From positions 1-64,000 of IMG/VR virus record IMGVR_UViG_3300031952_000004: a stretch of DNA of 64,000 nt, one strand, 5' to 3'. Within the stretch, counting starts at the first letter, position 1, and each line of letters begins with the position of its first letter. This DNA is from a virus. The notes beneath the pieces are model-generated. The model was not told the DNA's origin, did not search any database, and saw only the letters and a program-made list of their open reading frames with translations. Both the position numbers and the translations under genes were made by a program. Below are positions 5,209 through 34,609 of the stretch, one piece after another.

Positions 5209-6816
5209 TTAATCATTCTTTTTTTCCTCTTTTATTTCGATTTTGGGTTCTTTTCTTTTAAGTTTATATTTCTTATCAATAAATTCTAAATAATCCTTCA
5301 AGCTATTAAATGCTTCTCCACCACTAACCAAAACACCTTGTAATAAACTTTTAGGTAATTCTTTTTTCAATAAATCGGTAATTAAATAAATAGGAATATT
5401 ATGTTCTAATGCTATTCCACATTCAAAAAAACTGCCACAATTATGTACGATAAATCCATTGGCTATAAAATTTCCTGTTGTTGTTACTATATCATATACG
5501 GGTAATCTATAATACTTTTCCGAAGTAACAAAATTTCTCATTTTATCAATAGTAACTGTTAATTTTTTTCTTTTATATTCTAACTGACTGGGAATTTCAG
5601 CAAAATATAATTTACTTAAACAAATACATACCTCTCTATGAGAATTAACTTTTCTATTTTTTATAAATGAATCTCGTAATTTTCTTATATTCTTAGAATA
5701 ATGTAAATCTAATTCATTACAATATTTTTCAAATATTGCTATTTGTTCTTCATGAATAATGCTCTGAGTATAACGAATAGATTCTTTTTCATAATATCCA
5801 TCGGCATCGATTGCTCCAGCAATCCAACCCTGCTTAAATGAAATAATATTATCGTGAAGATGTTTCCATTCTTTTAATATTTCGTAATCTCGAATAGAAT
5901 AAGTAGCTACTTCAAAATATATATTATTGTTTTTTTTCAATATTCTTTTTTTTGGATTAAATTTAAAATATTTTAATAAATTATATATTTTATCTATCTC
6001 AATCTCTTTATCACTTAATGCAGAAACTCGATGTGCTACTTTAGATTCCCAGAAATTACCATCGTGTTGTAAATATCCCACCAACCATCCCTTTAAAAAT
6101 AAATCATTTTGATAAGCAAATGGCAAACTAAAAACTTCATTTATATCAGAAATAGATTCATATTTACTTCCATGTTTTTTATTTGGTGATAAAAATTTGT
6201 GTTCGGGAGTTGTTATTATTTGATTGTCAAAAGAATCTTTTGTTAATAAAGTATTTTTTTTGCCTTTATAATATTTCTCCATAACAATTGATGTAATTAA
6301 TTTAGATACTCCATTTATTTTAATTATTCCCTTTATTTTATCCCCTATTTCAATTTCTCGAATTGATTTAGATGTCAAATCATCCATAAGAATTTGACTA
6401 TTTTCTTCAATACAAGGTTTATCTCCTTTACTATAAGTAAAAGTTAACCAATTAGACATAGTTACATAATCAATATCTCCTGGAATATGTACTAATTCTT
6501 CTTTTCCATCTATATATTGTTTACCTTTCCAAATCTCTTTGGCTTTTTCTTTGAATAATTCCCAATTACCAGAAGCTACCCAGCCAGACATTTTTTCTTT
6601 TATTTCTCCTGTTCTTAAACCTGTTTTTGATGTTTCTAATTTTACAGGATTAATCGGATATACATTTCTCAATAATAATTCTTTTTCTACAATTTCTCGT
6701 TTTTCTGTGCCGTCGTCTTTTTCGACACAAATTTCCATAGAACCAATAAGATATGTAATATATCTATACTGTTCTTCTATTTGTTCTGGAAGTGGATAAC
6801 CTCTATTTTCTTCCAT
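5209..6816 (-). CDS. Nucleoside 2-deoxyribosyltransferase-like (NDT/RCL-like) protein interrupted by an intein
   Basis: N-extein YLIGSME...PINP...DIDYV; C-extein CGSFFECGIALEHNIPIYLI matches the NDT G-x-x-x-E-x-G-x-A..P motif. Confidence 0.65.
   Translation of the reverse strand: MEENRGYPLPEQIEEQYRYITYLIGSMEICVEKDDGTEKREIVEKELLLRNVYPINPVKLETSKTGLRTGEIKEKMSGWVASGNWELFKEKAKEIWKGKQYIDGKEELVHIPGDIDYVTMSNWLTFTYSKGDKPCIEENSQILMDDLTSKSIREIEIGDKIKGIIKINGVSKLITSIVMEKYYKGKKNTLLTKDSFDNQIITTPEHKFLSPNKKHGSKYESISDINEVFSLPFAYQNDLFLKGWLVGYLQHDGNFWESKVAHRVSALSDKEIEIDKIYNLLKYFKFNPKKRILKKNNNIYFEVATYSIRDYEILKEWKHLHDNIISFKQGWIAGAIDADGYYEKESIRYTQSIIHEEQIAIFEKYCNELDLHYSKNIRKLRDSFIKNRKVNSHREVCICLSKLYFAEIPSQLEYKRKKLTVTIDKMRNFVTSEKYYRLPVYDIVTTTGNFIANGFIVHNCGSFFECGIALEHNIPIYLITDLLKKELPKSLLQGVLVSGGEAFNSLKDYLEFIDKKYKLKRKEPKIEIKEEKKND
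5440..6414 (-). mobile_element. Intein (325 aa) with LAGLIDADG homing endonuclease
   Basis: Starts CIEENSQILM; block B TPEHKF; LAGLIDADG motifs LVGYLQHDG and IAGAIDADG; ends VYDIVTTTGNFIANGFIVHN followed by Cys+1. Confidence 0.92.
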
Positions 6817-15348: not shown

Positions 15349-16161
15349 TTATCCTATTTGTTTTTTATAAACTTCTTGTGCTAATTTATCGTCGGGATTT
15401 GCATAAATTAGGGTTGTTTGTAAGGAATTATGTCCTAAAATACGTTGTATAACTAATGGACTAATATTTTGTCTCATCATATAAGTAGCGGAAGAATGTC
15501 TAAAAATATGAGTAGATATATTTTTATTTAAATATTTTCCTATTTTCTTCGATAAGTAATTAATTTCTGCTAATGTAATAGAAAAAGCATTATTTAATTC
15601 TTTTTCCGAATTAAAATAATCTGTTAAATCTTTAATAATTATATTAGGAAAATAAACTATTCTTTCAGTCTTATCTTTTTGCCCCCAAATATTTACCGAA
15701 CAATTTATTAAATCTATTTTTTCTCTATTTAAAGAAAGTAATTCTCCTTTTCTAATTCCTGTAAAAAATAAGAATTTTAAGATAGCATTGCATTTAGTAG
15801 AAGACATCCCTGCTTTGCTATAAGTAGAATAATACTTTATTCCTTGTAAAAGTTCTTCAAAAGTAATATATTTAGGTTGTTTTCTTTCTACTTCTAATAA
15901 TTTAATCTTAAACCATTCGTTATTTTCTTTGGCAATATTTAAAAAAGAATAAAATGACCTCCCTGATTTTATAAAATTGTTTTTGCTATTGCTGGAATAA
16001 GAAGAACAATTAAAAAAATCAGTAATATTCTTTTGACTAATATATAAATAATCTATATTTTTTTTATTACAATATTGTAACCATAATTTTATATAATTAT
16101 AATAAACCATTGATTGATTTCTTGCCAATAAATATTCTTTATATCTAATAAGATTTTCCAT
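15349..16161 (-). CDS. Tyrosine recombinase (Xer/integrase family)
   Basis: TGIRKGEL, HIFRHS, LGH..LQTTLIY catalytic R-H-R-H-Y residues. Confidence 0.92.
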   Translation of the reverse strand: MENLIRYKEYLLARNQSMVYYNYIKLWLQYCNKKNIDYLYISQKNITDFFNCSSYSSNSKNNFIKSGRSFYSFLNIAKENNEWFKIKLLEVERKQPKYITFEELLQGIKYYSTYSKAGMSSTKCNAILKFLFFTGIRKGELLSLNREKIDLINCSVNIWGQKDKTERIVYFPNIIIKDLTDYFNSEKELNNAFSITLAEINYLSKKIGKYLNKNISTHIFRHSSATYMMRQNISPLVIQRILGHNSLQTTLIYANPDDKLAQEVYKKQIG

Positions 16162-17146: not shown

Positions 17147-18175
17147 TTATTTTAACCCCTGCAAGAATAATAAACCTTTATTTGTAATAATACGCCCCCT
17201 TGAAGTTCGACTTAACATTCCTTGTCTCAATAGGTAAGGTTCGGTTAATTCTTGATATTCCTGCCTTGTTTGATTAGCAATAATTGATAATGCTTCCATT
17301 CCAATTGCTTTTCCGTTAGTATCTTTAAGATGATTTAAAATTTTTACATCTATATCAGTTAATCCTTCAGATATTATGCGGTTCATTTTCATAACCTTAT
17401 CAATATTTCCATTTGTTGCTATTACAAAATCAAAAAATGAAATAGCCATACGGGGCGTGTAACGCACATTTCTACTTATAATATCATAATCTTCTTCTGG
17501 AACATTTAATTTATGTATTTGTTCATTATATTGTTTTAATAAACATTTGATATTTTCCGCCGAATAATCTTCTAAATAAATTTTACATTGTATCCTATCT
17601 AAAAATGGTTGACATCTTTTTGATAATATCCAAGTATCTGTCGTTGCCCCTATTAAAATAAATTTTCTTAAAATTTTTCCGGCTAATTTAAAATCTTCTA
17701 TAATAGGCAACATATAAGTTAAAACTTTTTTATCTAATTCTGCAATTTCATCAATAAATAAAACATTTGGTAAATCGCTATCTTGATTTTTAACTAAAAA
17801 ATCATTTAAAGTTTCTATTTCAAAATTACTGCCCACATATACATTAAAATTAAATCCTAAATTTTTAGTTATTATACCTGCGAGAGTAGTTTTTCCATAT
17901 CCAGCATTACCCATTAGTAAAAAATGTCGGGGAAAACCTTTTTTAATAAGTTCTATTGTTAATTTTGCTTTATCTTTTGCCTTATCCTGCGATATATATT
18001 GTTCAAAAGTTTCGGGTCTATACATAAATTTGGTAGGAGTGTGCGGTTTTTGTATATAACTTTCTTGTAAAGATTTTTCTTCTGGAGAATTTTCGGTATT
18101 CTTTTTTTTCATACCAAATAATTCCATAGCATAACTTAATCCTGTCGCTTCCCAAATAGTATCAAATATATCCAT
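17147..18175 (-). CDS. ruvB: RuvB-like Holliday-junction branch-migration ATPase
   Basis: RPETFEQYISQ, Walker A GNAGYGKT, Walker B LFIDE, LIGATT, LDR, TPR, EPYLL..G..SRTSRGR winged helix. Confidence 0.88.
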   Translation of the reverse strand: MDIFDTIWEATGLSYAMELFGMKKKNTENSPEEKSLQESYIQKPHTPTKFMYRPETFEQYISQDKAKDKAKLTIELIKKGFPRHFLLMGNAGYGKTTLAGIITKNLGFNFNVYVGSNFEIETLNDFLVKNQDSDLPNVLFIDEIAELDKKVLTYMLPIIEDFKLAGKILRKFILIGATTDTWILSKRCQPFLDRIQCKIYLEDYSAENIKCLLKQYNEQIHKLNVPEEDYDIISRNVRYTPRMAISFFDFVIATNGNIDKVMKMNRIISEGLTDIDVKILNHLKDTNGKAIGMEALSIIANQTRQEYQELTEPYLLRQGMLSRTSRGRIITNKGLLFLQGLK

Positions 18176-20190: not shown

Positions 20191-21279
<1,089 letters not shown>

Positions 21280-22960
21280 TTTTACCTCTCCTTTTTTATT
21301 ATGTTAAATCTATATCTATTTCTTGATTAAAATGATTATCTTCTAATTCTGTGGTTAAAATATGACATTCAAAAATATCAAAACCAAATTCTTCTTTCGC
21401 CCATTCTTCTGCTTGTTCTAAATTCTCTGCTTTTACTAAAACATCTAAAGAAAACTTAAATAACTTTGACATTTTTATCTCTCCTTTTTTATAATGTATC
21501 ATTTATTTCAATTTCTATTTCCTCAATTTCTTCTTCTGTTAAATTTTCTCTATTTTGTATTTCAATAGTCGCTTCATAATCACTAAATTGAGGGTCTTGT
21601 TTTTCATATCTAAAAGCAATTACTTTTTTACCATTAACTTCTAATTCATATCTTGTTTCAGTTTCAAAAAAAACAAACCTTTCATTTAATATTTTAATCA
21701 TTTTTGTTTTCCCCCTTTAATTAAAGTATATATTATAATCCATACCAGAGCAAATTATTACCAACCATAAGAAAACTCTATTCTCCATAAAAATTTATTT
21801 TTATATACTATTCTTTCAAATTTAAAACAACCTATCCTTAAAGCAAATCCTTTATATTTCTTTCCTATTTTAAATCTGGTAATTTTTATCATTTAATTTT
21901 TTTTCCTTATATATAAGTATAAACTATGCTTAATAAGTTCCTCAAAACAAATAACTTATACTACTTTCTTAAATTGAGTTTTTTCTTTCTTTTCTTCTTG
22001 CAAATCAAGATATTTTCTTATCTTTACTGCATAAGAAATAATATCGGATAGAGTATATTTTTTTCTTTCTCTGATTAACTGCTTCTCTGCAAGTGTAAAA
22101 AGACTACCTGTTTTACGCATAATATCCTCGCTTTCTTTATCCCTTAAAAAATATTGTTCTCGCTAATACTAACGCCTCTAATCTCTGTTCAGTATTTAAA
22201 TTCAAATCTAAACCGTCAATAATTTCGGCTAATACTTCGTTTAGCAAATCTTCTAAATTTTCCATTTTATCATTAATTGCACATTCTATATTTTTTATTA
22301 CTAACCCATTTAATTCTTTAGATATTTTCATCACTCCTCCTCAAATTAAATCTTCAAATCTTGTAAAAGTTTTTTCTAATTTATTCATTATCCTAAATTC
22401 TTCCACCCATTCTGTTAAGTCCTCAACTATGGTCTTACGATAAATATATTCCCCTTCTATTGTCATTAAACTAACCCCTGAATTGATTTCTTGCATTACT
22501 TTTTCTAATACTTTATTATACATTTTTTTTGTCATTTTTTGTTCTCCTTATTTGATTAATTATTTAATACAATTCTCGCAACCCAATATTTTAGGTTTTT
22601 TTCACTTTCAGTTAGCATATTATCTAACCACTCGTTTAACAAAGAATAACCTGCGTCAAAATCAAATTCATAATCTCCATCAAATTTTGTTCCATTTATT
22701 ATAGTAGTAAATTCTTGCTGAATATAATATTTTTTAACTTCTTTTTTACATTTGAGGCATTTCATTTTTTTATCTCTTTTTTTTTTCTAAAATTTGTTTA
22801 CTTAAAATTCCGTTCTCTCTTTTCCAACAAGCCTCACATAAATAAGGTTCTACCATAGGATTAACGTGTCCTATATTTTCTTCAATTTTACATTTTGAGC
22901 ATTTATATTTCATAATTTAACCTTCCTAAAATTTAAAAATATTTTTTCCCGGTCAGTCTT

Positions 22961-23209
22961 CTAAAAATCATTTTCTCGCCTTCGGTTCATTTCTTTTACA
23001 AATTCTACACTACCTTCAGTTCCTTTTTGCACTTCAAATCTACTCGGCACATAATTTCCGTAATAATCTCTATATCTTTTTAATCCCAAATAACAATACC
23101 CCTCTTTAATCATATCCATAGCATATCTACCTATGCTACCCTCTAAATGCCAACATATACCACTATTTATCATCTTTTGCACTCTTTTTATTTCTGCCAT
23201 TTTTATCAT
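22961..23209 (-). CDS. Small early protein, paralog of 29813-30022
   Basis: Shared G..W.L.GS.GR.A...I motif. Confidence 0.65.
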   Translation of the reverse strand: MIKMAEIKRVQKMINSGICWHLEGSIGRYAMDMIKEGYCYLGLKRYRDYYGNYVPSRFEVQKGTEGSVEFVKEMNRRRENDF

Positions 23210-23879
23210 TTTGACCTCTTTTTTATAAGTTATTGTTATTATTAAAGTTATGATTATTCATTCTTGAAAAATTTATTTTCCCGGGCATGGAGACAAAAAT
23301 AAAAATTTTTTTAAGCATCTGACCGGGCACAGAAAAAAATTTAATTTTCCAGAAGTTAGTTCTGGTCATTTTTAACCTCTTTTTTCGGTTCGCACTTCTC
23401 ACAAACCCCCTGCCAAACTCCCTTATTAACTTCTACTACCTCTTTAAAGGGTCTTTCTTTACAAATATCACATACAATTATCCTGTTTTCCATTTTAAAT
23501 AGGTTAGTCATTTTTATTTCCCTTCTAAATAATCGCCTATCCACCATTTAGAAAAATAGTTATTTAATCCAAGAAAAATTTTTAATCCTGTCTTATACCA
23601 TAAATAATTAACTAAACAATGTAATTTATATCCTATTTTTGCTTTAAATTTCATTTTTCCGGTCTCCCGGTCGGATAAAATAAAATTATCTAATTAAACT
23701 CAATACTGCTGACTTATCTTGTTCACCTAATCCAATTAAAACATCTGCTACTGCGTCAAGTTCAAAATCGTAATACTCGCAATTATCGTATCTTGACAAA
23801 ATATCTGTGGTCAAAACTTCGTTCACTTTCCTTGCCAATAATCTTTTTTTTGCGTCGGTCATCATCTTTTACTCCTTTT

Positions 23880-24233
23880 TTATGCTACAATTTCAAACAT
23901 TTTACTACATTTACTACACTCTAAATGATAATTTCTTGTAATTAAATCTATTATATCAAACCCATTATTGATAATATTTGCACTACAACATTCACTTTTT
24001 AATTTCTCAATTTCCCATTCGCCATATTGTAATAAATATTCTAATTGTTTTTCTGTGGTATCTATTTTCCAAAATTTAAAATAATCCCATATACTTAATT
24101 CATTATCTTTATCATCTGTTCCTACAAAATCAATATCGTGATAATCTGCTAATTCTTCTACTATATCTTCCAAAGTTTCAAATATCCTATTTTCTTTCGT
24201 GCCTACACCTTGCAAATCAATTATTTTATACAT
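23880..24233 (-). CDS. Hypothetical acidic protein with C-terminal zinc ribbon
   Basis: SECC...CSKC. Confidence 0.6.
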   Translation of the reverse strand: MYKIIDLQGVGTKENRIFETLEDIVEELADYHDIDFVGTDDKDNELSIWDYFKFWKIDTTEKQLEYLLQYGEWEIEKLKSECCSANIINNGFDIIDLITRNYHLECSKCSKMFEIVA

Positions 24234-24559
24234 ATTTTTTCCCCTTTTTTATTGTTAATAAATAAAAAACATATTCCAAAAAATCTATATCCTACTGCAT
24301 TAAATTTTGTCGCTATCCATTTATGATAAAACCAATTACCTGCGGAATGTTTCAGAGAAGTAAAATATATATTTATTTCATAACATAACCACTTAATTAC
24401 TATCATTTTATCCCCCTTCAATATATTTTATTGCCTTTTTTATAATATAACATCTTTTTTATCTTTACCTGCAAAAACTCTAAAACATTTATCTATAAAT
24501 TTTATTTCTTTTTTTGTTAAAGTTTTTAGTTTTGTTTTTTTCATTTTAAATTACCCCCT

Positions 24560-25150
24560 TTACAATGTTAATATCAATTTCTTTTGTTTAGTTTCGCCTC
24601 TTAAATAATCGGCTAAAAATTGTATGCCAATTTCTGCAATTATCCTATTACCACATTGTATATGTCTTTCTTCTATATCCTCATTCCTTTGACAACCGCC
24701 CTTTTGTCCATTATCTTTAGTTAATTCAAGGTATTCTATATCATCTTTTTGTGTTAAATAGGCAAATATTGTCTTTCCACTTGCCCTTAAATCTAAAAAT
24801 GGTCTCCCGGCCTCGTAAATAATTTTTCGCACTTCGTTATTGTCGGCACAAATAATAATAAAATCATACTCGGCTATCTGTTCGGCTAATTCTATTTTAA
24901 TATTTATTGCTTTATATCCTGTTCTATCTGCCAAAACTTCGGCTTTATTTCTATCTAAATCTTCTATTTCAAAATTTTGGTAAAGTAAATTTTTTTCCTC
25001 TACTTTATCATAATCTATAATATCAATAGCCATAGGATTAACTCTATTAAGCCCGATTAAATCTCTTTTTATCATTTCGGATAAACTTCGGATAAAATAA
25101 CTACCAATACCCCCACACCCTATTACTGCTATTTTTAAATTATCTTTCAT
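24560..25150 (-). CDS. ThiF/MoeB/E1-family adenylyltransferase (Ubl-activating enzyme-like)
   Basis: VIGCGGIGS, DYDKVEEKNLLYQ, NKAEVLA, ICADN..VR, LDLR; no CxxC Zn pairs; candidate Cys in GGCQ; ATG 25150 with AAGGAG SD. Confidence 0.9.
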   Translation of the reverse strand: MKDNLKIAVIGCGGIGSYFIRSLSEMIKRDLIGLNRVNPMAIDIIDYDKVEEKNLLYQNFEIEDLDRNKAEVLADRTGYKAINIKIELAEQIAEYDFIIICADNNEVRKIIYEAGRPFLDLRASGKTIFAYLTQKDDIEYLELTKDNGQKGGCQRNEDIEERHIQCGNRIIAEIGIQFLADYLRGETKQKKLILTL

Positions 25151-25280
25151 TTTCAAACTCCTTTATCGCTTCTTTTAATAATCTTTCAATTTCAGGAATG
25201 GAGTTTAAATTTTGTTTACCCATTCTAAAAAGTAACCAATTTTTTGCGTATTTATATAATTTTGTTTTTTCTATTTTCAT
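25140..25280 (-). CDS. 46-aa ORF overlapping the E1 start
   Basis: Hand translation MKIEKTKLYKYAKNWLLFRMGKQNLNSIPEIERLLKEAIKEFENER. Confidence 0.55.
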   Translation of the reverse strand: MKIEKTKLYKYAKNWLLFRMGKQNLNSIPEIERLLKEAIKEFENER

Positions 25281-25311
25281 TTTTAATTCCTTTAATTTTT
25301 TATGAAGCCAA

Positions 25312-25371
25312 GAGTGGAGTTTAACTTTTATGGTAACTCCACCCTTTAGGTCAACCTAAATCGGAGTTACC
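25312..25371 (-). promoter_or_regulatory. Mutually exclusive RNA hairpins just after the Ubl stop codon
   Basis: GGUAACUCC/GGAGUUACC enclosing UUUAGG/CCUAAA competes with GGGUGGAGUU/AACUCCACUC. Confidence 0.55.
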
Positions 25372-25568
25372 TAACCACCTATCAAACTATCCGTTATTAC
25401 GATTTCTCTCGGCAATTCGGTAATTCCGTCAAGCGTAACTTCATTGACGAATTTTCCGTCTGCAAAAACAAACTTGTCCTTTAACTCCACTTTTGACTTT
25501 AACTCATCAATCGTGGCTACCTCTAATCTTGTATCCCCTGTTTCGTCTAATACGATTACCTTAATCAT
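25371..25568 (-). CDS. Ubiquitin-like (beta-grasp, ThiS/MoaD/SAMP-like) protein ending in Gly-Gly
   Basis: 65 aa, beta-beta-alpha pattern, VFADGK, terminal strand EIVITDSLIGG-stop; adjacent to E1. Confidence 0.8.
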   Translation of the reverse strand: MIKVIVLDETGDTRLEVATIDELKSKVELKDKFVFADGKFVNEVTLDGITELPREIVITDSLIGG

Positions 25569-25598
25569 TTTTACACCCCCTCTCTTTTACCTCTCTAC

Positions 25599-25637
25599 TA
25601 TAAGTATAACACACCTTTTGCTTTCCCGGAAGTCCTT
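25599..25637 (-). promoter_or_regulatory. Extended -10 promoter element, copy 1 (upstream of Ubl-E1)
   Basis: TGTTATACT extended -10; 35/39 identical to 27784-27822. Confidence 0.7.
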
Positions 25638-25801
25638 TACTCATCTAACTCGCCCCCGGCTAAAAAGAATAACTGCCTATATGCAATCCTCTCTTGATAA
25701 TTCCCTAACTTCTCAATGTTCAACCATATTGCCCTTGCCCCATACTCGCTTATCTTTTCCGTCATCTCATCAATACTGACAAACCTTTTTCCGTTTTCCA
25801 T
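25637..25801 (-). CDS. 54-aa hypothetical protein
   Basis: Hand translation MENGKRFVSIDEM...LFFLAGGELDE with AAGGGGG SD. Confidence 0.55.
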   Translation of the reverse strand: MENGKRFVSIDEMTEKISEYGARAIWLNIEKLGNYQERIAYRQLFFLAGGELDE

Positions 25802-25813
25802 TTTTACCCCCTT

Positions 25814-27484
25814 TTAATGTATTGTACTAATTTCTTCTCGGAGATTTCCGTCGTTCATCATAACCATACAAAATTGAAGTAATTTATCGTATTTGCAAAG
25901 ATAACTTCCCTCTTTTGTCTTTTCGTTAATACAAATATAATCATTTCCCGGGAAAGTCCACACACCCACGTCATTATCATTTTTACGTTTTACAATATAG
26001 TTTTTTAATTTTCCCTTTACCACATAACCACCCTCTCTTATAAATACTCTTGTCTTATTTTTCTCTAAAAATTCATTAAATAACTGTTCGGCTCTCGCCT
26101 CTGCTAATCGTCTTTTTTCCACAAATCCCTTTATCTTATCAATTAAAATGTCCTCTAATTCTGCCCCGGCCTGTAAAGTATCACAAATACTACCAATTGC
26201 AGTTAAACCACCCCCACTTAAATATTTAAAACTATCTTTTACAGATTTATAATCTCTTTTTACCCTAAAATTATCTATACTAATTTCCCAATGGTCTTTA
26301 TCCTCTGCTTTTATGTTAAAATGTATAGGTATAGTCGTTCCGTCTAATCTTATTTCTATGGTCTTTCCGGATAATAATTCTAATTGCGTTCCGCTAAATA
26401 ATCTAATTTTCTCTAAATAATTTTCTAAATTTTGTATTCTTTCTCTTAAAACAGTTTCGTCTATGTTGTTATAATATCCACCGCCGATAAACTCAATGGC
26501 TTTATTCATTTTTTGTATCGGCATTTTTACGTCATTTATTTTAAATCTTAATTTACCTTTATCATTATGATTATTTTCTATTTTAATCTCTTTTAAAAAA
26601 GTTTCTACTTTCGTTTCTTTATCATAAGAATAAATCTTAAAATTCAACCATTTTTTATTACAGTTTTCTGTTAATTTCTTATCTATCGGGGTTTCGTATT
26701 TTCCTACTCTATAAACTCCCTCTAATTTCTGTAAAAAACTTCTATAATCTAACTGAATAAATTTATTATTATAGTTATCTTCACTTACTAAATCATCTTT
26801 ATCAAAAAGTTTTACAACCTTATCTTTAAATTCTATCTTTAATCCTTTATTTTTATCAATAAAATAATTATCCTTAATTATTGTATCATTATCCTCTAAT
26901 AAAGTCATTTTATCATATTGATTAACTAATGCTTTAAATCTTTCTCGTTCCTGTATATCTTTTAGTTCCTCTGTTGTCTTTTCTTTATTCTCTAATTCTT
27001 TTCCCTCTACTTCTATCTCGGCTAATCTATTTTTAATTTTATCTAAATCCTCATTAAAAATTAAATAAATTTCTAACAAATCTATCTTGCCTAAAAGTTT
27101 AAAACTTAAATTTTCTTTATCCTCGTATCGTTCAAAATTTTTAATCTGTTTATCGGTTATAAGCATATCGTTATAAATATAAGATACTAAATTGTTATTC
27201 CTATAATAAGTCCTACCACCTTTTATACTAAACACCCGGCCAGTATCAAGATAATTATAAATTCCCTCGTCGCTTGATATAAAATACAAATAATTATCTA
27301 AATAAAATACTCTTGTGTTTCCGTCAAATTGAAATACATTTAATTTATGGCTATCCTCTGTATCGGGTATTTGCCTATTCTCAAAAAATCCCGGTTCTAA
27401 AATCTGTTTACCAAATTCTACCTTTTGCCATATTCTTAAATAAGTTTCGTCATTTTGTTTTTCTATATGGTATCGTTTAAACAT
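25814..27484 (-). CDS. Large protein with C-terminal Cys-containing domain; candidate Ubl partner (E2-like or target)
   Basis: 556-aa ORF; C-terminus VVKGKLKNYIV...NDYICI...DKLL..MMND; linked to Ubl/E1 by position and shared promoter. Confidence 0.5.
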   Translation of the reverse strand: MFKRYHIEKQNDETYLRIWQKVEFGKQILEPGFFENRQIPDTEDSHKLNVFQFDGNTRVFYLDNYLYFISSDEGIYNYLDTGRVFSIKGGRTYYRNNNLVSYIYNDMLITDKQIKNFERYEDKENLSFKLLGKIDLLEIYLIFNEDLDKIKNRLAEIEVEGKELENKEKTTEELKDIQERERFKALVNQYDKMTLLEDNDTIIKDNYFIDKNKGLKIEFKDKVVKLFDKDDLVSEDNYNNKFIQLDYRSFLQKLEGVYRVGKYETPIDKKLTENCNKKWLNFKIYSYDKETKVETFLKEIKIENNHNDKGKLRFKINDVKMPIQKMNKAIEFIGGGYYNNIDETVLRERIQNLENYLEKIRLFSGTQLELLSGKTIEIRLDGTTIPIHFNIKAEDKDHWEISIDNFRVKRDYKSVKDSFKYLSGGGLTAIGSICDTLQAGAELEDILIDKIKGFVEKRRLAEARAEQLFNEFLEKNKTRVFIREGGYVVKGKLKNYIVKRKNDNDVGVWTFPGNDYICINEKTKEGSYLCKYDKLLQFCMVMMNDGNLREEISTIH

Positions 27485-27770
27485 TTTTTATCTCTCTCTT
27501 TCGTTTAATTATATCTATATGTTTTTGAAGTTCTACCTCGCTAAACTTATTAAGATTAACAAGGTCTTTCGGAAAGTCCGGTTCTAATACTAATATCTCG
27601 GCTATTAGTTTTTCCTTACCCGGTTCTATTGTAGTAACTTCGGCTTTTTGCTTTTTAAGGTCTTTAATTTTATGCTCTAAATCTAACCTCTCTACACTTC
27701 CCGGCCTACATTGAAGTTTAAGTTTTCTTAACCGCCTTATCTCTGCTTTAATTTCTTTAGGTTCTGTCAT
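27477..27770 (-). CDS. Basic coiled-coil hypothetical protein
   Basis: ORF track; overlaps the start of the 556-aa gene. Confidence 0.65.
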   Translation of the reverse strand: MTEPKEIKAEIRRLRKLKLQCRPGSVERLDLEHKIKDLKKQKAEVTTIEPGKEKLIAEILVLEPDFPKDLVNLNKFSEVELQKHIDIIKRKREIKNV

Positions 27771-27783
27771 TTTTGCCTTTCAT

Positions 27784-27822
27784 TATAAGTATAACATATC
27801 TTTTGCTTTTCCGGTAGTCCTT
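27784..27822 (-). promoter_or_regulatory. Extended -10 promoter element, copy 2 (upstream of the 97-aa and 556-aa genes)
   Basis: Near-identical to 25599-25637. Confidence 0.7.
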
Positions 27823-27998
27823 ATTTACAATGCTCGGTTATAATTGCCACTTCGTCTTTATGTTCCCGGCCATAGCAACCACAATTTATTTCTGCTTTGT
27901 GTCCGCAATTCTGATATTTTCCGTCTTTTATCCAAACTTGTTTTTCATAATCATAACTTAACTTTGCTTTATCTTTACTATAATAATTCCGGCTCATT

Positions 27999-28323
27999 TT
28001 ACACCCCCTTATTTTCATATCCTTTTTCACCCCACAAGGTATCACCTCTATCATTTTTCAATGCTTTAAGATAAACTTTTTTGTAAATCGGCACTAATCC
28101 AAACCCGGTCAATAAATCTTTTTCTATTCGCTTAAAATTTTCATTATGTCCGTATGTTTTTGTAGTATCATAATTGATAGAATGTCCTAATTCGTGCAAA
28201 ACATAAGCCCTAAAATATTCTATACCCTCTAAATAAGCCCAAATAGGTATGCTAATTTTCCGGTTATCATAATAAGCAAATCCTCTTTGAATATCTTTTA
28301 CTCTAATTTTTATCGGCTCTCAT
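27999..28323 (-). pseudogene. SprT-like zinc metalloprotease with a +1 frameshift just after the start codon
   Basis: VLHELGH...GHNENFK motif; ATG 28323 (SD GCGAGG) frame stops after 6 codons; HEXXH frame is open from 28319. Confidence 0.65.
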
Positions 28324-28354
28324 TTTTATACCTCGCTTTTTAAATCCTAACTAA

Positions 28355-28383
28355 AGTATAGCACATAAATTACTAATTGTCAA
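28355..28383 (-). promoter_or_regulatory. sigma70-type early promoter
   Basis: TTGACA-17 bp-TATACT with TG extension. Confidence 0.85.
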
Positions 28384-28729
28384 ATTATTTATTACTATAT
28401 ATATCAATAACTTACAACATTATTTAAAAATAATTTTTTAATTTTTCCCGGTTAGATGCCAAAAATAAATTTCTATTTGCATAAAACAAATTAAAAATCC
28501 TATAACTGTCAATATATAAATAATCATTTTAATACCTTTTTTATACAAATAGTTCCAAATTTCGCACAATTATCTATATCTACTTCAAACCAATATAATA
28601 GGGGTAATGTCTTAAAATAATGTCTTTTATTACATAAATCACAAATATAATCTCCCTCAAATATACCTATAAATTTTAAGGGGTAATTATAACCTTTTAT
28701 TTTATAAAAATTCCCCATAACCAACTTAA

Positions 28730-29110
28730 TCATTTCCCGGCCTCTTGTTGATATAATTCTCGCCTTAATGTTTCGTGTTTATCCTCGCTTGAATTTAAAT
28801 ATATAGTTATAATCTGCTTATTTATTCCAATAACTAAAATTATATCAAGTCCTGTTTTATATGGTATTCTGTAACATATCTTAATCGGTTCGCCTATATC
28901 ATTTAAATAATATTCAAAAATCTGCCCGGCCTGTAAAGTTAATTCTTTAATATATAAGAGTAACCCCTCAAGGTCAATTACTCTAAATTTTAAATGGTCA
29001 AGACAATGCTCTGTATATTGCCAATTAAGGCAATTTAACCTTTCCGTAAATTCCCCCAACCGTTGCCAATGCCCCGGCTCTGTATATACTGCTTTGTGGT
29101 ATCTTAACAT
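28730..29110 (-). CDS. Hypothetical early protein, possible BECR/RelE-like ribonuclease fold
   Basis: YTEHCLD, IILVI, IITIYLN..D.H.TL pattern. Confidence 0.4.
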   Translation of the reverse strand: MLRYHKAVYTEPGHWQRLGEFTERLNCLNWQYTEHCLDHLKFRVIDLEGLLLYIKELTLQAGQIFEYYLNDIGEPIKICYRIPYKTGLDIILVIGINKQIITIYLNSSEDKHETLRRELYQQEAGK

Positions 29111-29812
29111 TTTAATTTTTACTCCTATAATATTATACCTTACCTTAAAATCTTTTAACCTTGCCCTTGCTACGCCCGGCTTTTAAATCGCTTTTAATTT
29201 TCCCATATCGCTATAACTAATTTTCCTATTCTAATATAAAACCCACCTAAAACTAAATGTTTAAAAAAACCATATCTTGATATTAAGGTTTTACTAATAG
29301 TTAGACTATACATTTTACACCCCCTTTTTTTTTATTATTTAACTACATACAAACCTATTTCCATATTGATAAACTTTACGCCCGGCCAGTATTTTGTCTG
29401 ATATACCTCTGTGTTTATCTATCCACTTGCGAATTTTAACCGCCCGGCTTAAAATTAATGCTCTTGTCAATTCTTTATTTTCTCTTAATACCTGCAATTC
29501 GGCTAATTTAAATATATTCATATATCCCCCTTTTGTTAGTTTATAGTTTTAATTACTTCTAAAAAATCGACTCTCTCTTGCCCGGAAAAATTATCTTTAA
29601 TAACTTTATTCAATACACTTTCAAATTCAAACCTTTCCCAAGTCCTATTGTAATAACAAACTTTAGTTTTCGCTATACTATACCCGGCTTTGTGCAACGT
29701 TGCTATATGTCTAAAACCGTATCTTGTGCTTTCCGAATTACAAACTATATTATACTCATTATTTAAATTAAATATACGCATTTTACACCCCCTTATTTTT
29801 AAAATTTTTGTT

Positions 29813-30022
29813 TTAATAATTCTTTGCTTTGTCTAATAGTTTCCCTTGCTTTGATATAAACTTATCCTGTATCAAAGCCCAAGCAGTCCGGCCATAACTC
29901 CCCTGTAATTGCCACGCCCGGCCTGTTTTTATCAAGTGACTAAATAGTTTTAATGTTTCCTTATCGTTTAACTCCCCGGCCTCGTATCTAATGATGTAGT
30001 CTAATTCGCTAAATTTTACCAT
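29813..30022 (-). CDS. Small early protein
   Basis: YEAGEL...LIKTG.AWQLQGSYGRTA. Confidence 0.7.
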   Translation of the reverse strand: MVKFSELDYIIRYEAGELNDKETLKLFSHLIKTGRAWQLQGSYGRTAWALIQDKFISKQGKLLDKAKNY

Positions 30023-30038
30023 AACACACCCCCTTTTT

Positions 30039-30683
30039 TTATAACTCTATTTCAGTATCTTCATTTAAATAAATCGCTGTTAATTTTTCCCGGTTATATC
30101 CTAAATTGTAGTCTATTGCTTTCAATAAATCTGCTTCACAATTGCCTATATCTATCCAACAATTAGCCCCCCAACTACCAAACCGGAAATTGCCTCTGGC
30201 GTAACTCTCTATATTCCACCTATGCCTGTCAATTTCAAACTCTATTTTGTATATATCGTAATTTATTATAATCCCGGTCAATTTATTTATTAGGGGATTA
30301 CTTATTTTGTGTTCTTTATATGCTTTTTGTCTAACTTCAAAATAGCACTCCCCACAATACTCGGAATTTTCAAAAGAATGTATATCATCATTGTAAATCA
30401 ATTCGCCACAATTTTCGCAAGAATAAAAATTCTCTGATATACAATTTTCACAGTATAAAGAATTGTCAATATTCTGTAAAATTGTAATTGAAAATTTATC
30501 CCGGCAATTTTCACATTCTTGGAAATATTCCTCATTATATTTTAAATCATTTATAAGAGTTAAAATTTTTATTTCAGTTAACTGTATCTTATTTCCAAAA
30601 CTTAATTGCCCCCTTGCTAACCGCCCGGCCAATTTATTTTCAAATTCGGTTATATTGCCCTTTTTTATTAGTTTATTTAACAT
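30039..30683 (-). CDS. Protein with repeated CxxC zinc ribbons
   Basis: CENC x3, CGEC. Confidence 0.65.
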   Translation of the reverse strand: MLNKLIKKGNITEFENKLAGRLARGQLSFGNKIQLTEIKILTLINDLKYNEEYFQECENCRDKFSITILQNIDNSLYCENCISENFYSCENCGELIYNDDIHSFENSEYCGECYFEVRQKAYKEHKISNPLINKLTGIIINYDIYKIEFEIDRHRWNIESYARGNFRFGSWGANCWIDIGNCEADLLKAIDYNLGYNREKLTAIYLNEDTEIEL

Positions 30684-30694
30684 TTTATCCCCCT

Positions 30695-30898
30695 TTATTT
30701 AACTATTTTTAAACCTAACTCCCGGCCTACATAGTTTATATGTTTTTGTGTAGTTATACTCCACCAACCTAATTGTTTCAATTCCCCTGTTTCATTGTCA
30801 ATAACTGCTACTTTTTTGTTATAGGAATAAACTTCATTCCCTATAACTTTTAAATTTTGCTTATATCTATCCATTTTTTTCACCCCCTTTCTTTTCAT
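30695..30898 (-). CDS. Small conserved early phage protein
   Basis: VYSY..VA.ID...WS.TT.KHIN pattern. Confidence 0.65.
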   Translation of the reverse strand: MKRKGVKKMDRYKQNLKVIGNEVYSYNKKVAVIDNETGELKQLGWWSITTQKHINYVGRELGLKIVK

Positions 30899-31389
30899 TT
30901 AAGATATACCCGGTTAACTGCCAAACCGTTCCCCCCTGCAAACCAAAAACTTGATAAAAATAAATCGGCTCTGAAAAATAATGATAATTATTTATCAATT
31001 CGCTAACTATTCCGTTTATATCATTACTTTTTAAATTTTTTATAACCTTTTTTGCCTGATATAGCATTTTTTTATCTCTTGATATAATCATCTTTATTCC
31101 CCCCCTTTTATGCTGATAAAACTTTAATTTCCTTTACTAACTGCCCGGCTTTAATTATATTCCTATATAAAAAATTTTCTCTATTACCTTGCTTAAAATA
31201 CTTTGTATTAGTTATAACTTTACAAGCAAAAGCCGGGTATCGCTTACTATTGCCTAAATAATAAAAATCATATATTATTACTTCTCTTGCTTCATTAAAT
31301 CCCTTTACTATAAATCGCTTTCCTATGAATTGTCTTTTTTTGTCTATCATTCTATCCTCGCTTTTTGTTTATTGTTTTTTAAATTCTAA

Positions 31390-31788
31390 TTAAAGTATAG
31401 CATATATTCCCGGCTTTGTCAATACCTTGCGTTGTTTTATTTTAGACGAATAAAATAAACATATCACTTTATAATTACTCAATGAATATATAACTCCCCT
31501 ATAATGTCTTTTGATATCTTTCAATGCTCTATCAATATCACGCCCGGCCTTGTCAATATACCTTGCTTTGTCTTTAGTTATATCGTATAATCTGCCCTGC
31601 TCAATTCCTATTATATAAATATATTTACTATTATTTAATAAAAATTCTGGCTTTGGCTTTGTATAATAAAAAGCCCTTGCTAATCCGGATATATTTTTAT
31701 CGTTGTTAGTATAATAATTCGTACCAAAAAAACTTGGCTCAATATATCCCTTAAAATCGGTATTACTATAATGATATAGTTTTATCAT
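31390..31788 (-). CDS. Possible ADP-ribosyltransferase-fold early protein
   Basis: LYHYS...P..FGT...RAFYY...PE..LYD..Y.GV.Y pattern. Confidence 0.4.
   Translation of the reverse strand: MIKLYHYSNTDFKGYIEPSFFGTNYYTNNDKNISGLARAFYYTKPKPEFLLNNSKYIYIIGIEQGRLYDITKDKARYIDKAGRDIDRALKDIKRHYRGVIYSLSNYKVICLFYSSKIKQRKVLTKPGIYAIL
31394..31422 (-). promoter_or_regulatory. sigma70-type early promoter
   Basis: TTGACA-17 bp-TATACT with TG extension; CCCGG site in the spacer. Confidence 0.8.
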
Positions 31789-31789
31789 T

Positions 31790-32104
31790 TTAATCGCCCT
31801 CTCTTAAAATTCCCTTGCTATAATATAATTGACTTTCCAATTCCCGGCCTTTTAAAAATTCTTTTAATAATATATCATCTAATCTATTACCTATATATTC
31901 CCAGCTATGCTTTAATAAATGTTTATTGTCTATACAGTCTAAAATATATAACTTGCCTTCTAAATATAGCCCAGCCTCTAATATATCAAGCGAATTATAT
32001 CCTTTACATCTTGCTAATTGATTATGATGTAAAACATTACTTTTATAATGCCTTAAAAAGCCCTTGCTATTCTTTATTATAATATACTTTGTTTCCTTAT
32101 TCAT
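31790..32104 (-). CDS. Hypothetical early protein
   Basis: ORF track. Confidence 0.6.
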   Translation of the reverse strand: MNKETKYIIIKNSKGFLRHYKSNVLHHNQLARCKGYNSLDILEAGLYLEGKLYILDCIDNKHLLKHSWEYIGNRLDDILLKEFLKGRELESQLYYSKGILREGD

Positions 32105-32115
32105 TGTAGCACCCT

Positions 32116-32484
32116 TTATTTATAGTATATCTCAATATAATACTTCCCGGTCTCATTGTATATCGTACAACCGCTAAAATCCCTCAATGCCTCTTTAATA
32201 GTAGTTTTTAAATCTTGCCTTAAAACTTCTTTATATATCCTATTAGGCAATACTTCTATTTGTTTATCAATACCATTATAAACATAACCGCATTTAAATC
32301 TAACATAAAATAAAGCCTCTTGCCTATACTTAGTTTTTAAATCCTCTAAAATCCAAGTATTGAAATTATAAGTATTGGCTATCCTTAAATAATCATAAAA
32401 GATTTTGCCTTCTGTATTACGCCAAAAACCTCTTATAGATGTTTTGGTTCTACCTTTAATCTCTGGTATAAATACTTTAATCAT
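32116..32484 (-). CDS. Hypothetical early protein
   Basis: ORF track. Confidence 0.6.
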   Translation of the reverse strand: MIKVFIPEIKGRTKTSIRGFWRNTEGKIFYDYLRIANTYNFNTWILEDLKTKYRQEALFYVRFKCGYVYNGIDKQIEVLPNRIYKEVLRQDLKTTIKEALRDFSGCTIYNETGKYYIEIYYK

Positions 32485-32671
32485 TTTAGCACCTATTCAT
32501 TTATTTTTAAGTAATTATTTAAATCTAATAACTTATAATCTAATCTATTTAACAAATAAGTCTTTAATGTTTTAATTGCTAAATGAATTTTAAAATCATT
32601 TGCTTTAATCTCATAATCTATTTTGTTTAGTCTGTTCATTTTAACCTCTCTTTTTGTTTACTTCTATCTAA

Positions 32672-32700
32672 AGTATAACATAATAAAGTCTATTTATCAA
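32672..32700 (-). promoter_or_regulatory. sigma70-type promoter at the head of the early arm
   Basis: TTGATA-17 bp-TATACT with TG extension. Confidence 0.75.
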
Positions 32701-33018
32701 GGTTTCAAGGTAAAATAATTATAACTTATTATAATACAATAAGTTAGGGTATAAAATAATTCTTATTTATCCTAAAATAAATTATTAACTATACTCTAAT
32801 AAAATCTATCTAATAATACAGGGAATAATAAAATGCAATAGCGCACACTCGCCGAAATAACTCATCTTTATTCAATTATAATTAACTATAATAAGTTAAA
32901 TCTAATAAATTATACCCAACCTATTGAAGTATAACAAGATAAGTTATAGGCAGGGTTCATTTTAGCGGATTACAACAGGACACCGAACGATACCCCCACT
33001 ATACCTTTCTTTCGATTT

Positions 33019-33583
33019 TCTACCTTTTTCAACCTCTTTAACTTCAACACATTAAAAATTAAATCCACTCTAAAAATCGTAAAAACACAAATTGGTCGAA
33101 ATATGCCCATAACGGACATTAATATATATAATATCGGAATAGGATTATTGTTATCTTTTTTAGTTATAATTAACTTATTTCTTTTATTTAGGATTAATTA
33201 GCGTTTTTTTTCGGTCTTTTTATAACTTCTACCCTCTTCTACCTTATTGATATTATTATAGTTATATTAATACTAAATTAGTATTTATCAGTATTTTATT
33301 AGTATTTCAAATCTACCTCTTCTACCTTATTGAAAACAAATAACTTACGATTTCTACCTAGTTTCTACCTTTTTAGAAGGTAGAAGATACTAGTTAATTT
33401 TAATACCTATATATATCTACCTATTTCTACTATTCGTTAAATAAACAAGATACGAAAAAATTACAGATAAATGTAATTTTTAAGTACTAAAGGAGGGAGA
33501 AGGAGAAAGTAGTCGTGCTGAAGTTGCCCCCTACCCCCGACTTATTATTAGCTAAGATACTATATTTCTACCCTAATCTACCT
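33019..33583. repeat. Cluster of TCTACC repeats in the divergent non-coding region (candidate origin or packaging region)
   Basis: TCTACC at 33019, 33228, 33238, 33312, 33321, 33353, 33364, 33416, 33567, 33577 and inverted at 33379; near-duplicate TCTACC(C)TCTTCTACCTTATTGA. Confidence 0.65.
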
Positions 33584-33887
33584 TATTGTAAATAAAGAAG
33601 TTAGAAAAAGAATACAATGGTCGAATATATATAACGAGAATACGGTAAGTTAACCTAGCTTTATTAGGTTAACGTATTAGGTCGATAAGACCTAATTAGT
33701 AGACCATAGGGTTCTTCTTTTACGAGTATTTACGTAGTAAATACGAGTAAAAGATAAATTATTACTTTTATCGTATTGTATTGATACTTTATATCATATA
33801 GATTAATATAATATATAAGTATACGTTGGTATAATATTTATACCTTAACTTATTGTAATTATTATAGTTATAAAAATAATAATATAT

Positions 33888-33932
33888 TTACTTAAATAAT
33901 CGGTATTTTCGAGTATACTTATAAGTAGAAGG
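33888..33932 (+). promoter_or_regulatory. Putative phage late promoter TTACTTAAAT-N15-GTATACTTATAAGTAGAAGG
   Basis: Same motif as 14111-14155; faces the structural operon. Confidence 0.7.
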
Positions 33933-34282
33933 TAAAAATGTTCTTTAAAATATATAGACCAATTGAATTGAGTAGAAAGCAGCATAATAACCGATAAAAC
34001 TCGGTAAAGATACTATTAATAACAAACGTCTATCTCGAATGATAGAAACGCAGTTAAAAGAAACTTATAAATAGGCTGCACAAACAAAACTTTAATTCAT
34101 GGTAAATTGTTGAAGAATATTATGATAACGATAATAGTTTGTATAGTTTGGTTATTTTTTATGTGGCTTTTTGGGCTAACTAAAAATATACCAAGAATTT
34201 GATTTATTCTCTTTCTGATTTCTTGAGTTGAGATTGGCTAATAGTAAGCAATCGAAAAACAAATTAAGGATTCAGATTCAGA

Positions 34283-34545
34283 AAGAGTTATTATTGCTTG
34301 GAGGGCGTTAAGCTCTGCTTGATAGCTCTCCTTTGCTAGCTTCATACTGTCGATTGACAGATAAATGGGTAGCTACTGATTATCGGGGGCTACCCGACTA
34401 AAAATTAATTAAGGCTAAAGATAAAGTTATGGACTGGGAAATCCTGGTCGATTTTGTCTTTAGCCTTTTTTATTTGTATCGGGTTAAGGGATTTTTACCT
34501 CTTCCATAAATTGTAAGTTTAAAATGGGAACTTATTAACCCGATT
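34283..34545 (+). ncRNA. Structured leader or possible ncRNA (series of hairpins)
   Basis: AGAGTTATT/GATAGCTCT, GGGTAGCT/GGCTACCC, AAGGCTAAAGATAAA/TTTGTCTTTAGCCTT and ATCGGGTTAA/TTAACCCGAT stems. Confidence 0.4.
34411..34475 (+). terminator. Intrinsic terminator-like hairpin
   Basis: 15-bp stem followed by TTTTATTT. Confidence 0.6.
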
Positions 34546-34609
34546 ATCACGATGGTGAGAAATACTTCATAGAAAGTTAAAAAGTAATGCTCACCCCATA
34601 GGAGAATAA

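Follow-up and report, generated by a model that had tools for sequence, protein, structure and literature searches.

The analysed window comprised the first 64 kb of IMG/VR record IMGVR_UViG_3300031952_000004, a 109,585-bp contig of an uncultured tailed phage from sediment metagenomes (G000), and contained a block of small early genes in which the tetranucleotide CCGG was concentrated in a strand-oriented array. The contig ends overlapped by 127 bp, giving a circular assembly of ~109,458 bp with 27% GC. Leftward genes ran from a divergent region at ~33-34.6 kb through the CCGG island and around the circle to ~74 kb, and structural genes ran rightward from 34.6 kb. The gene content included a family-B DNA polymerase (PolB), a primase, a baseplate-like protein and many HNH genes. 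G000 is distant from every isolated phage. In a tblastn search with its PolB, the only relatives were at most 26% identical, the island had zero megablast matches in 50,697 phage records, and zero relatives of G000 were obtained from the 185,579 species genomes of GTDB.

The window contained 48 CCGG sites, 47 of which were located within 22949-32147 and one at 17679; a second outlier, at 91629, brought the total for the whole contig to 49. On the plus strand, CCCGG was read 36 times in the island and CCGGG four times, and neither occurred in the other 100 kb. All island genes are encoded on the minus strand and the word is thus CCGGG in the sense strand, with R-G-CCGGG-M-R as consensus on the coding strand. 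An earlier sequence-only reading of the window had counted ~47 CCGG, ~36 CCCGG, ~4 CCGGG and one outlier; its counts and coordinates were exact on recount, and the extended CCCGGTYAGATGC copies that it had listed, one of them inverted, were both present (Table 1). Chance clustering of CCGG is excluded (10-kb clustering test, p about 1e-46).

Sites in open reading frames (ORFs) were distributed over codon phases 0, 1 and 2 as 8, 20 and 11 (39 in total), encoding P-G, A/T/S-G or x-R, and about eight sites were intergenic. Since the word occurs in all three phases as well as in spacers, it represents a nucleotide-level signal and not a peptide motif. Following within-gene synonymous shuffling, 17.9 +/- 2.6 CCGG were expected against the 39 present in ORFs (z 8.2), and 8.6 CCGGG against 31 (z 12). 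The polar sites are a selected array and no codon-pair artefact, as the sequence-only reading had proposed. When the proteins were recoded with backbone codon usage, 3.4 CCGG and 0.5 CCGGG were obtained, corresponding to an excess of about ten-fold and about sixty-fold, respectively. Codon usage in the island differed from that of the backbone for Pro CCG (47% vs 3%), Ala GCC (28% vs 7%), Gly GGG (26% vs 6%) and Arg CGG (9% vs 1%). Selection for the word acts on the nucleotides themselves, at the expense of codon usage and in some cases of the amino-acid sequence.

Two near-complete relatives were obtained from IMG/VR by a PolB search: G001 (97 kb, PolB 72% identical to that of G000) and G002 (105 kb, complete). 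Two further contigs, G004 and G005, are partial. For the 556-amino-acid (aa) protein encoded in the island, ~50 relatives were found in public data and 15 metagenome loci were fetched; a single-protein search of IMG/VR with this protein gave nothing, and an alignment search gave G001 as the sole match. G001 contained 38 CCGG, 35 of which (32 oriented) were located in a 10.4-kb stretch corresponding to the syntenic early module, with 73-84% nucleotide and 47-88% amino-acid identity to G000. A related phage thus carries the same island on the same early genes, a check that the sequence-only reading had named. Import of the block from a genome uniformly rich in CCGG, which that reading had also considered, did not agree with G001, where CCGG richness is again restricted to the module and the rest, apart from the few sites outside this stretch, is CCGG-free.

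G002 is 96-99% identical to G000 over most of its length (97-100% in the virion genes), but where G000 has 21308-32882, G002 has instead 7.4 kb of other small genes. CCGG was absent from G002 genome-wide, and no other clustered word was found there. Because G002 has the same backbone without the word, the island is a signature of the exchangeable early-gene module and not of the phage backbone, and this comparison indicates that the word travels with the module.

The word is oriented with early transcription and densest beside the early promoters. Orientation amounted to 36:4 in G000 and 32:3 in G001, where strand composition predicts 2.2-2.4:1 (p 0.002-0.003). In these two genomes the +1 flank was G in 77-91% of sites, and C at -1 remained at background level; in G000 the -1 position was C in 4 of 47 sites and the +1 position G in 36 of 47, which does not agree with palindromic, strand-indifferent recognition. 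The non-coding leader of locus L038 was oriented 14:4, though G is rarer than C there. Counted per 2 kb from the first module gene, G000 contained 11, 14, 11, 6, 5, 0, 0, 1 and 0 sites and L038 contained 31, 21, 19, 10, 3, 5 and 4; site density dropped with distance from this gene in four genomes.

Ten of the 11 loci encoding a 556-aa protein at least 57% identical contained 2-13 CCGG per kb (for instance, 175 in 13 kb in L041 and 106 in 12.5 kb in L038), and the eleventh, the 1.6-kb L046, contained just one. When the genes for the 556-aa protein were aligned by codon, a few sites were common to most sequences and many had been gained in single lineages, often through several base changes that altered the amino acid. 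From the 22 alignable G000 sites, 13 were kept in G001 (0.32 expected at 75% identity, p 0.007). L047, the most distant long locus (556-aa protein 37% identical), contained 25 CCAGG vs 4 CCTGG on the same strand, again a stronger bias than composition explains, and zero CCGG. AGCCGAG was oriented in every clade, with 23 CCGAG in the G001 island, 4-6 in L045 and L047, and none on the opposite strand. CC followed by R-R-G made up 24-34% of coding-strand CC in G000, G001, L041 and L047, 12% in L045, and 1-4% in the G002 module or backbone. The focus of the sequence-only reading on the palindrome CCGG/CCSGG, as methylation marks or restriction decoys, did not survive the asymmetric flanks and the oriented CCAGG of the distant, CCGG-free module. 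The signal is an oriented GCC[G/A][G/A]G word whose preferred form depends on the clade, not the CCGG palindrome, and such clade dependence is how a recognition site behaves when it evolves together with its reader.

Table 1. Coordinates of the array and associated features in the window.
Feature	Position	Strand	Basis or remark
CCGG island: 47 sites, 36 CCGGG on the coding strand, 39 in ORFs	22948-32150	-	counts, shuffles
Exchangeable early-gene module; only long stretch of the window unshared with G002	21308-32882	-	genome comparison
Conserved cassette: 97-aa, 556-aa and 54-aa proteins, 65-aa ubiquitin-like protein (Ubl) ending in LIGG, ThiF/E1-like protein	24560-27770	-	
Strongest promoter-like site of the island, TTGACA-17-(TG)TATACT, with AAGCCGGGAA in the spacer (CCGG at 31410)	31394-31422	-	
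Intergenic extended copy CCCGGTTAGATGC	28447-28459	+	sequence
Inverted extended copy (GCATCTGACCGGG on the plus strand), one of only two purely reversed sites	23315-23327	-	
Only window CCGG beyond the island; intergenic, reads GCCGGA on the minus strand	17679-17682		
Divergent control region, largely non-coding, that contains repeated promoter-like elements	32640-34609		no copy of the word; shared with G002 from 32882
Zone almost free of CTAG, AGCT, CATG and GTAC	12528-33358		5 sites in 20.8 kb

Several sites were arranged around putative promoters. L047 started with 9.5 perfect 12-bp repeats GCAAAGCCAGGG, and ~35 bp separated the end of this array from a downstream TTGAAA-17-(TG)TATACT promoter-like site and the first gene. 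L042 started, ahead of a gene, with 10.9 copies of the 13-bp repeat AGCCTAAGCCGGG. In L038 and L041, two to five sites spaced 12-15 bp apart were located ~180 bp upstream of the first module gene. The word in the spacer of the TTGACA-17-TATACT site of G000 was found in the same arrangement at the homologous place in G001. RNA folding of the leader arrays gave no significant structure around the sites (z -0.5 and -2.0), and an Rfam search matched no family. The site anatomy points to DNA as the molecule that is read. Two intergenic copies of AAGGACT(T/A)CCGG(G/A)AAAGCAAAAG were also observed, at 25626 and 27811, preceding the genes for Ubl and the 97-aa protein by ~40-50 nucleotides; G001 retains the 27811 copy at the equivalent position. 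Promoter-like elements (TACCTTATTG ... TATAGTTA) were present in both orientations at 32700-33900 of the window, in the region common to G000 and G002.

The cassette at 24560-27770 is the common denominator of all word-bearing modules. G002 lacks the genes for the 556-aa protein, the 54-aa protein, Ubl and ThiF and keeps only a diverged homologue of the 97-aa protein. The C-terminal LIGG of the 65-aa Ubl was invariant in 10 homologues. Residues 452-551 of the 556-aa protein, its C-terminal 100, gave a weak likeness to the E2/RWD fold (Z at most 4.8), and Foldseek with the whole 556-aa model gave nothing. The cassette looks like a phage-borne Ubl-conjugation set consisting of E1, an E2-like protein and Ubl. 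The E2/RWD-like C-terminus of the 556-aa protein makes a sulfur-relay reading of ThiF and Ubl-GG less likely.

Outside the module, two adjacent genes with SspD/BrxP-like PAPS-reductase domains were found beside PolB and an HNH gene, at 90943-92597 of G000 (L002:6943-8597, minus strand). Scores were 3.8e-26 and 1.5e-12 for PF01507, and 1.4e-23 (SspD) and 6e-21 (BrxP) in PADLOC. The pair was present in G000, G001, G004 and G005 but in neither G002 nor G003, and its gene at 90943-91854 holds the sole G000 CCGG outside the window. Co-occurrence of island, cassette and PAPS-reductase pair in two genomes, with joint absence in a third, is suggestive and does not constitute proof.

The island is embedded in DNA poor in short palindromes. 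Outside it, GGCC occurred twice, GCGC five times, and CGCG and GATC not at all; for GATC, about 230 sites were expected in G000. GATC was completely absent, and CGCG, GCGC and GGCC were nearly absent, in G000, G001 and G002. The rarity of CCGG elsewhere, noticed in the sequence-only reading, therefore stands, but it belongs to a wider scarcity that affects GC-rich 4-bp palindromes as well as GATC. The purged zone listed in Table 1 had about 120 sites expected from the rest (one per about 170 bp). The zone sets in sharply at the divergent control region, and its promoter-proximal half contains the CCGG island. The same purge was found in G001 and in the CCGG-free module of G002; purge and word are therefore separate features, and an extra palindrome avoidance tied to the CCGG island was rejected, the purge spanning 12.5-33.4 kb and the G002 module.

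The purge suggests DNA that becomes exposed ahead of any self-protection by the phage, as in T5 or T7, with a presumed order of entry. Like the first-step-transfer (pre-early) DNA of T5/BF23 and the early region of T7, the block groups small early genes beside a control region. It covers about 8% of the genome and lies in a zone from which restriction-type words have been purged, as would be expected of DNA working before phage self-protection. Unlike T5 and T7 DNA, for which no enriched oriented word is known, it carries one, and it has no double-copy block. In the likely source run (X1), Logan unitig depth over the island and flanks was 52, 52.3, 50.8, 44.2, 34 and 46.5 (contig means). With this flat depth and no doubling, the island as a collapsed long terminal repeat was ruled out.

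The sequence-only reading had listed silencing or activating binding sites, translocase or entry signals and an mRNA signal among its possibilities, and all of these remain in the ranking that follows. Ranked first among the readings, and put forward tentatively, is that the sites are bound by a module-linked, sequence-specific DNA-binding factor controlling early transcription in a stoperator-like manner. The array would then consist of strand-oriented recognition sites with the core GCC[G/A]GG, here R-G-CCGGG-M on the coding strand, and the reader would belong to, or co-evolve with, the exchangeable early-gene module. Such a reader would most likely bind double-stranded DNA, such as GCCTAAGCCGGGA or the GCAAAGCCAGGG array. 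A site in or beside a promoter could act as an operator for early transcription, and a site inside a transcription unit as an orientation-dependent roadblock or loading site. We infer that the reader is a DNA-binding protein, encoded by the module and acting by transcriptional control. Stoperators are asymmetric, co-oriented with transcription and numerous, and co-evolve with their repressor (PMC9283540, PMC6550527). The array resembles those of cluster A mycobacteriophages (L5 gp71-type repressor) in its asymmetry, its many copies, its single orientation relative to transcription, its placement at promoters as well as inside transcription units, and in a word that varies between related phages. 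If a binding protein is indeed the reader, stoperator-type silencing would be extended from actinobacteriophages to uncultured AT-rich sediment phages, and into genes.

Several points weigh against a stoperator-like factor. No DNA-binding protein was identified, and no helix-turn-helix or repressor family was detected among 20 module ORFs (Pfam, PADLOC, NCBIfam), many of the small ORFs being without a family; a comparison of gene content singled out only the E1/E2-like/Ubl cassette, DUF7417 and a 132-aa protein. Stoperators occupy promoters and short intergenic spaces, whereas here most sites are inside ORFs (39 of 47), at up to 13 per kb, and a single site occupies a promoter-like spacer. With about 8-9 bp, the conserved core is shorter than the 13 bp of the cluster A stoperators. 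The latter are distributed over the whole genome and are associated with a repressor, for which no counterpart was identified here; the present sites are confined to one exchangeable early module, include tandem 12-13-bp arrays, and occur in ORFs in all phases at 3-13 per kb, at the cost of codon usage and amino-acid changes. Moreover, G000 itself lacks an array and has no site in its backbone-derived promoter region, the orientation in L041 and L038 is about 2:1, no more than strand composition predicts, and the promoter calls are consensus matches only.

A possible though doubtful explanation is a new cis-acting system borne by the exchangeable early-gene module, in which a polar code running through coding sequence would either be marked by the phage SspD/BrxP-like enzymes (a strand-specific backbone or base modification of first-exposed DNA) or be tracked by a module protein from the tandem loading arrays, with the word co-evolving by clade (GCCGGG, GCCAGG, GCCGAG).

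Taken as the whole explanation, strand-specific DNA modification made by the phage appears somewhat unlikely; its leading candidate would be a phosphorothioate-like mark, set by the two SspD/BrxP-type PP-loop enzymes, that protects or labels first-exposed DNA. The pair is encoded next to PolB in G000 and is about 85% identical at the nucleotide level in G001, well above the average for that genome, and the complete G002 lacks the pair, the island and the ThiF/Ubl cassette alike. The CCGG sites outside the island lie in the genes of the pair, except for 17679 in G000 and two sites in G001, and two of the few CCGG in the partial contigs G004 and G005 are also in pair genes. Location of the island within a larger zone free of restriction words is likewise consistent with early-exposed DNA. 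Ssp and BREX type 4 systems, in which enzymes of this class insert the sulfur, place it at C-C steps in short asymmetric words on one strand (PMC12914056), a target type that the present word would match, and SspD/BrxP-like genes co-occur with the island. Those systems mark whole genomes sparsely and not one 9-kb block.

A partner nucleoside triphosphatase (DndD, SspC or BrxC) is required for phosphorothioation (PMC12914056). None was recognised among the ten ORFs neighbouring the pair (Pfam) or in seven module ORFs (PADLOC), the only ones scanned; no nickase or cysteine desulfurase was found near the pair, none of these partners was found in the module, and SspB was not found either. PAPS-reductase homologues are common in phages, where their role is unknown (PMC11437467), and 977 relatives exist. 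The co-occurrence is based on three complete genomes, the cassette resembles E1, E2-like and Ubl protein conjugation and not sulfur relay (with a weak Z), and promoter-side tandem arrays are not known for modification targets. If the word were nevertheless a modification target, it would represent region-limited, phage-made marking of leading DNA, of which we know no described example.

Reading of 5'-GCCGGG-3' in the sense strand of early mRNA, either as a cleavage site at which a phage or host endoribonuclease ends early expression or as the site of an RNA-binding protein, is unlikely. All ORF sites are in sense orientation. The word, found in every codon phase, is limited to a single early transcription unit, and middle and late genes lack it. 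T4 RegB cleaves early mRNAs at GGAG, ending early expression, and GGAG is likewise a short sense-strand word concentrated in early transcripts. The RegB sites are mostly Shine-Dalgarno sequences, whereas those of the island are in the middle of ORFs and upstream of promoters, and no RegB-like gene was seen. The L047 array just upstream of a promoter-like site, and another site in a promoter spacer, would fall outside the transcript of that promoter. Furthermore, RNA structure around the sites was not significant, no Rfam family matched, and no RNase was recognised in the module.

Polar signals for a host DNA motor acting on entering DNA, either Chi-like, restraining AddAB/RecBCD at the leading end, or orienting a translocase in the manner of the FtsK-orienting polar sequences (KOPS) and SpoIIIE recognition sequences (SRS), are quite improbable. 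The word shares with Chi and KOPS/SRS that it is short, G-rich and polar, the effect of these known signals depending on how they face a moving enzyme. Its density is highest on the promoter-proximal side of the apparently first-exposed zone, tandem arrays occur at the extreme ends of two contigs, the word is clade-specific as Chi varies between hosts, and G002 could rely on an inhibitor instead. Chi and KOPS/SRS are nevertheless distributed over the host genome, whereas the word follows the module and not the backbone or the host, the virion genes of G000 and G002 being 97-100% alike. If the promoter-side end enters first, the 3'-ended strand facing the nuclease would be the C-rich complement, unlike all known Chi, so that the orientation fits poorly. 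The assemblies, circular with a 127-bp overlap, mark no physical end.

A link to host restriction-modification at CCGG or CCNGG, with the sites as decoys, methylation marks or programmed breaks shuffling early genes, is very improbable. The backbone avoids CCGG, GGCC, CGCG, GCGC and GATC, the module is mosaic, and CCGGG and CCAGG are both CCNGG. At Neisseria pilE/pilS, CCGG sites are reported as recombination-stimulating breaks (PMC13321361). The asymmetric flanks and the orientation argue against such a link, as does the co-enriched AGCCGAG, which is not CCNGG; 47 cleavable sites would be lethal in DNA otherwise avoiding nearly every 4-bp palindrome. A CCGG methyltransferase, which the sequence-only reading had considered, was not found in the phage: PF00145 and PF01555 were absent from the genome, without any C5 or N4/N6 methyltransferase.

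A by-product of module composition, codon usage or mutational bias without function is already disfavoured and hardly credible, for although island codon usage is generally shifted to G/C-ending codons and CCGA is also raised, within-gene synonymous shuffles are exceeded (z 8-12), other GC-rich 4-mers are not raised, sites are kept above neutral expectation, non-coding tandem arrays exist and the sister clade has a different word. tRNA genes as an origin of the GC-rich words were searched for and none was found. The consensus pause signal follows the rule G-10/Y-1/G+1, and it was rejected since no G enrichment was found at the required distance. The nicking word of GajA (Gabija), TNNNCGGGNNA (PMC8136825), was also rejected; its core resembles CCGGG, but its T and A wings are not enriched here.

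The array is real, strongly selected and conserved. Selection on a short oriented word is strong enough to prevail over codon choice, and even over protein sequence, in some 26 genes; the word moves between phages with the early-gene module and its sequence changes between clades. To our knowledge, an oriented-word array of this form has not been described. G000 and G002, with the same backbone with and without the word, form a natural pair and thereby a ready-made experiment.

Other features of the window were located on the early side or near the contig end. A tyrosine recombinase is encoded at 15349-16161 (Phage_integrase, 5.5e-18), in the early zone, and suggests that the phage is temperate or plasmid-like, or that dimers are resolved. 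The RuvB-like AAA+ protein encoded at 17147-18175 is only 41% identical between G000 and G002, with flanks at 88-98%, and this is another swapped segment. One of the early-side genes, at 20191-21279, encodes a 362-aa protein containing collagen triple-helix repeats, the G002 copy being 99% identical. The 535-aa ORF at 5209-6816 contains an intein splicing domain (Pfam 2.7e-09) and a central part unlike that of G002. Finally, four GCGC at 2947, 2989, 3010 and 3031, with 21- or 42-bp spacing, may form an iteron- or pac-like array, and the same repeat is found at the contig ends of G002.

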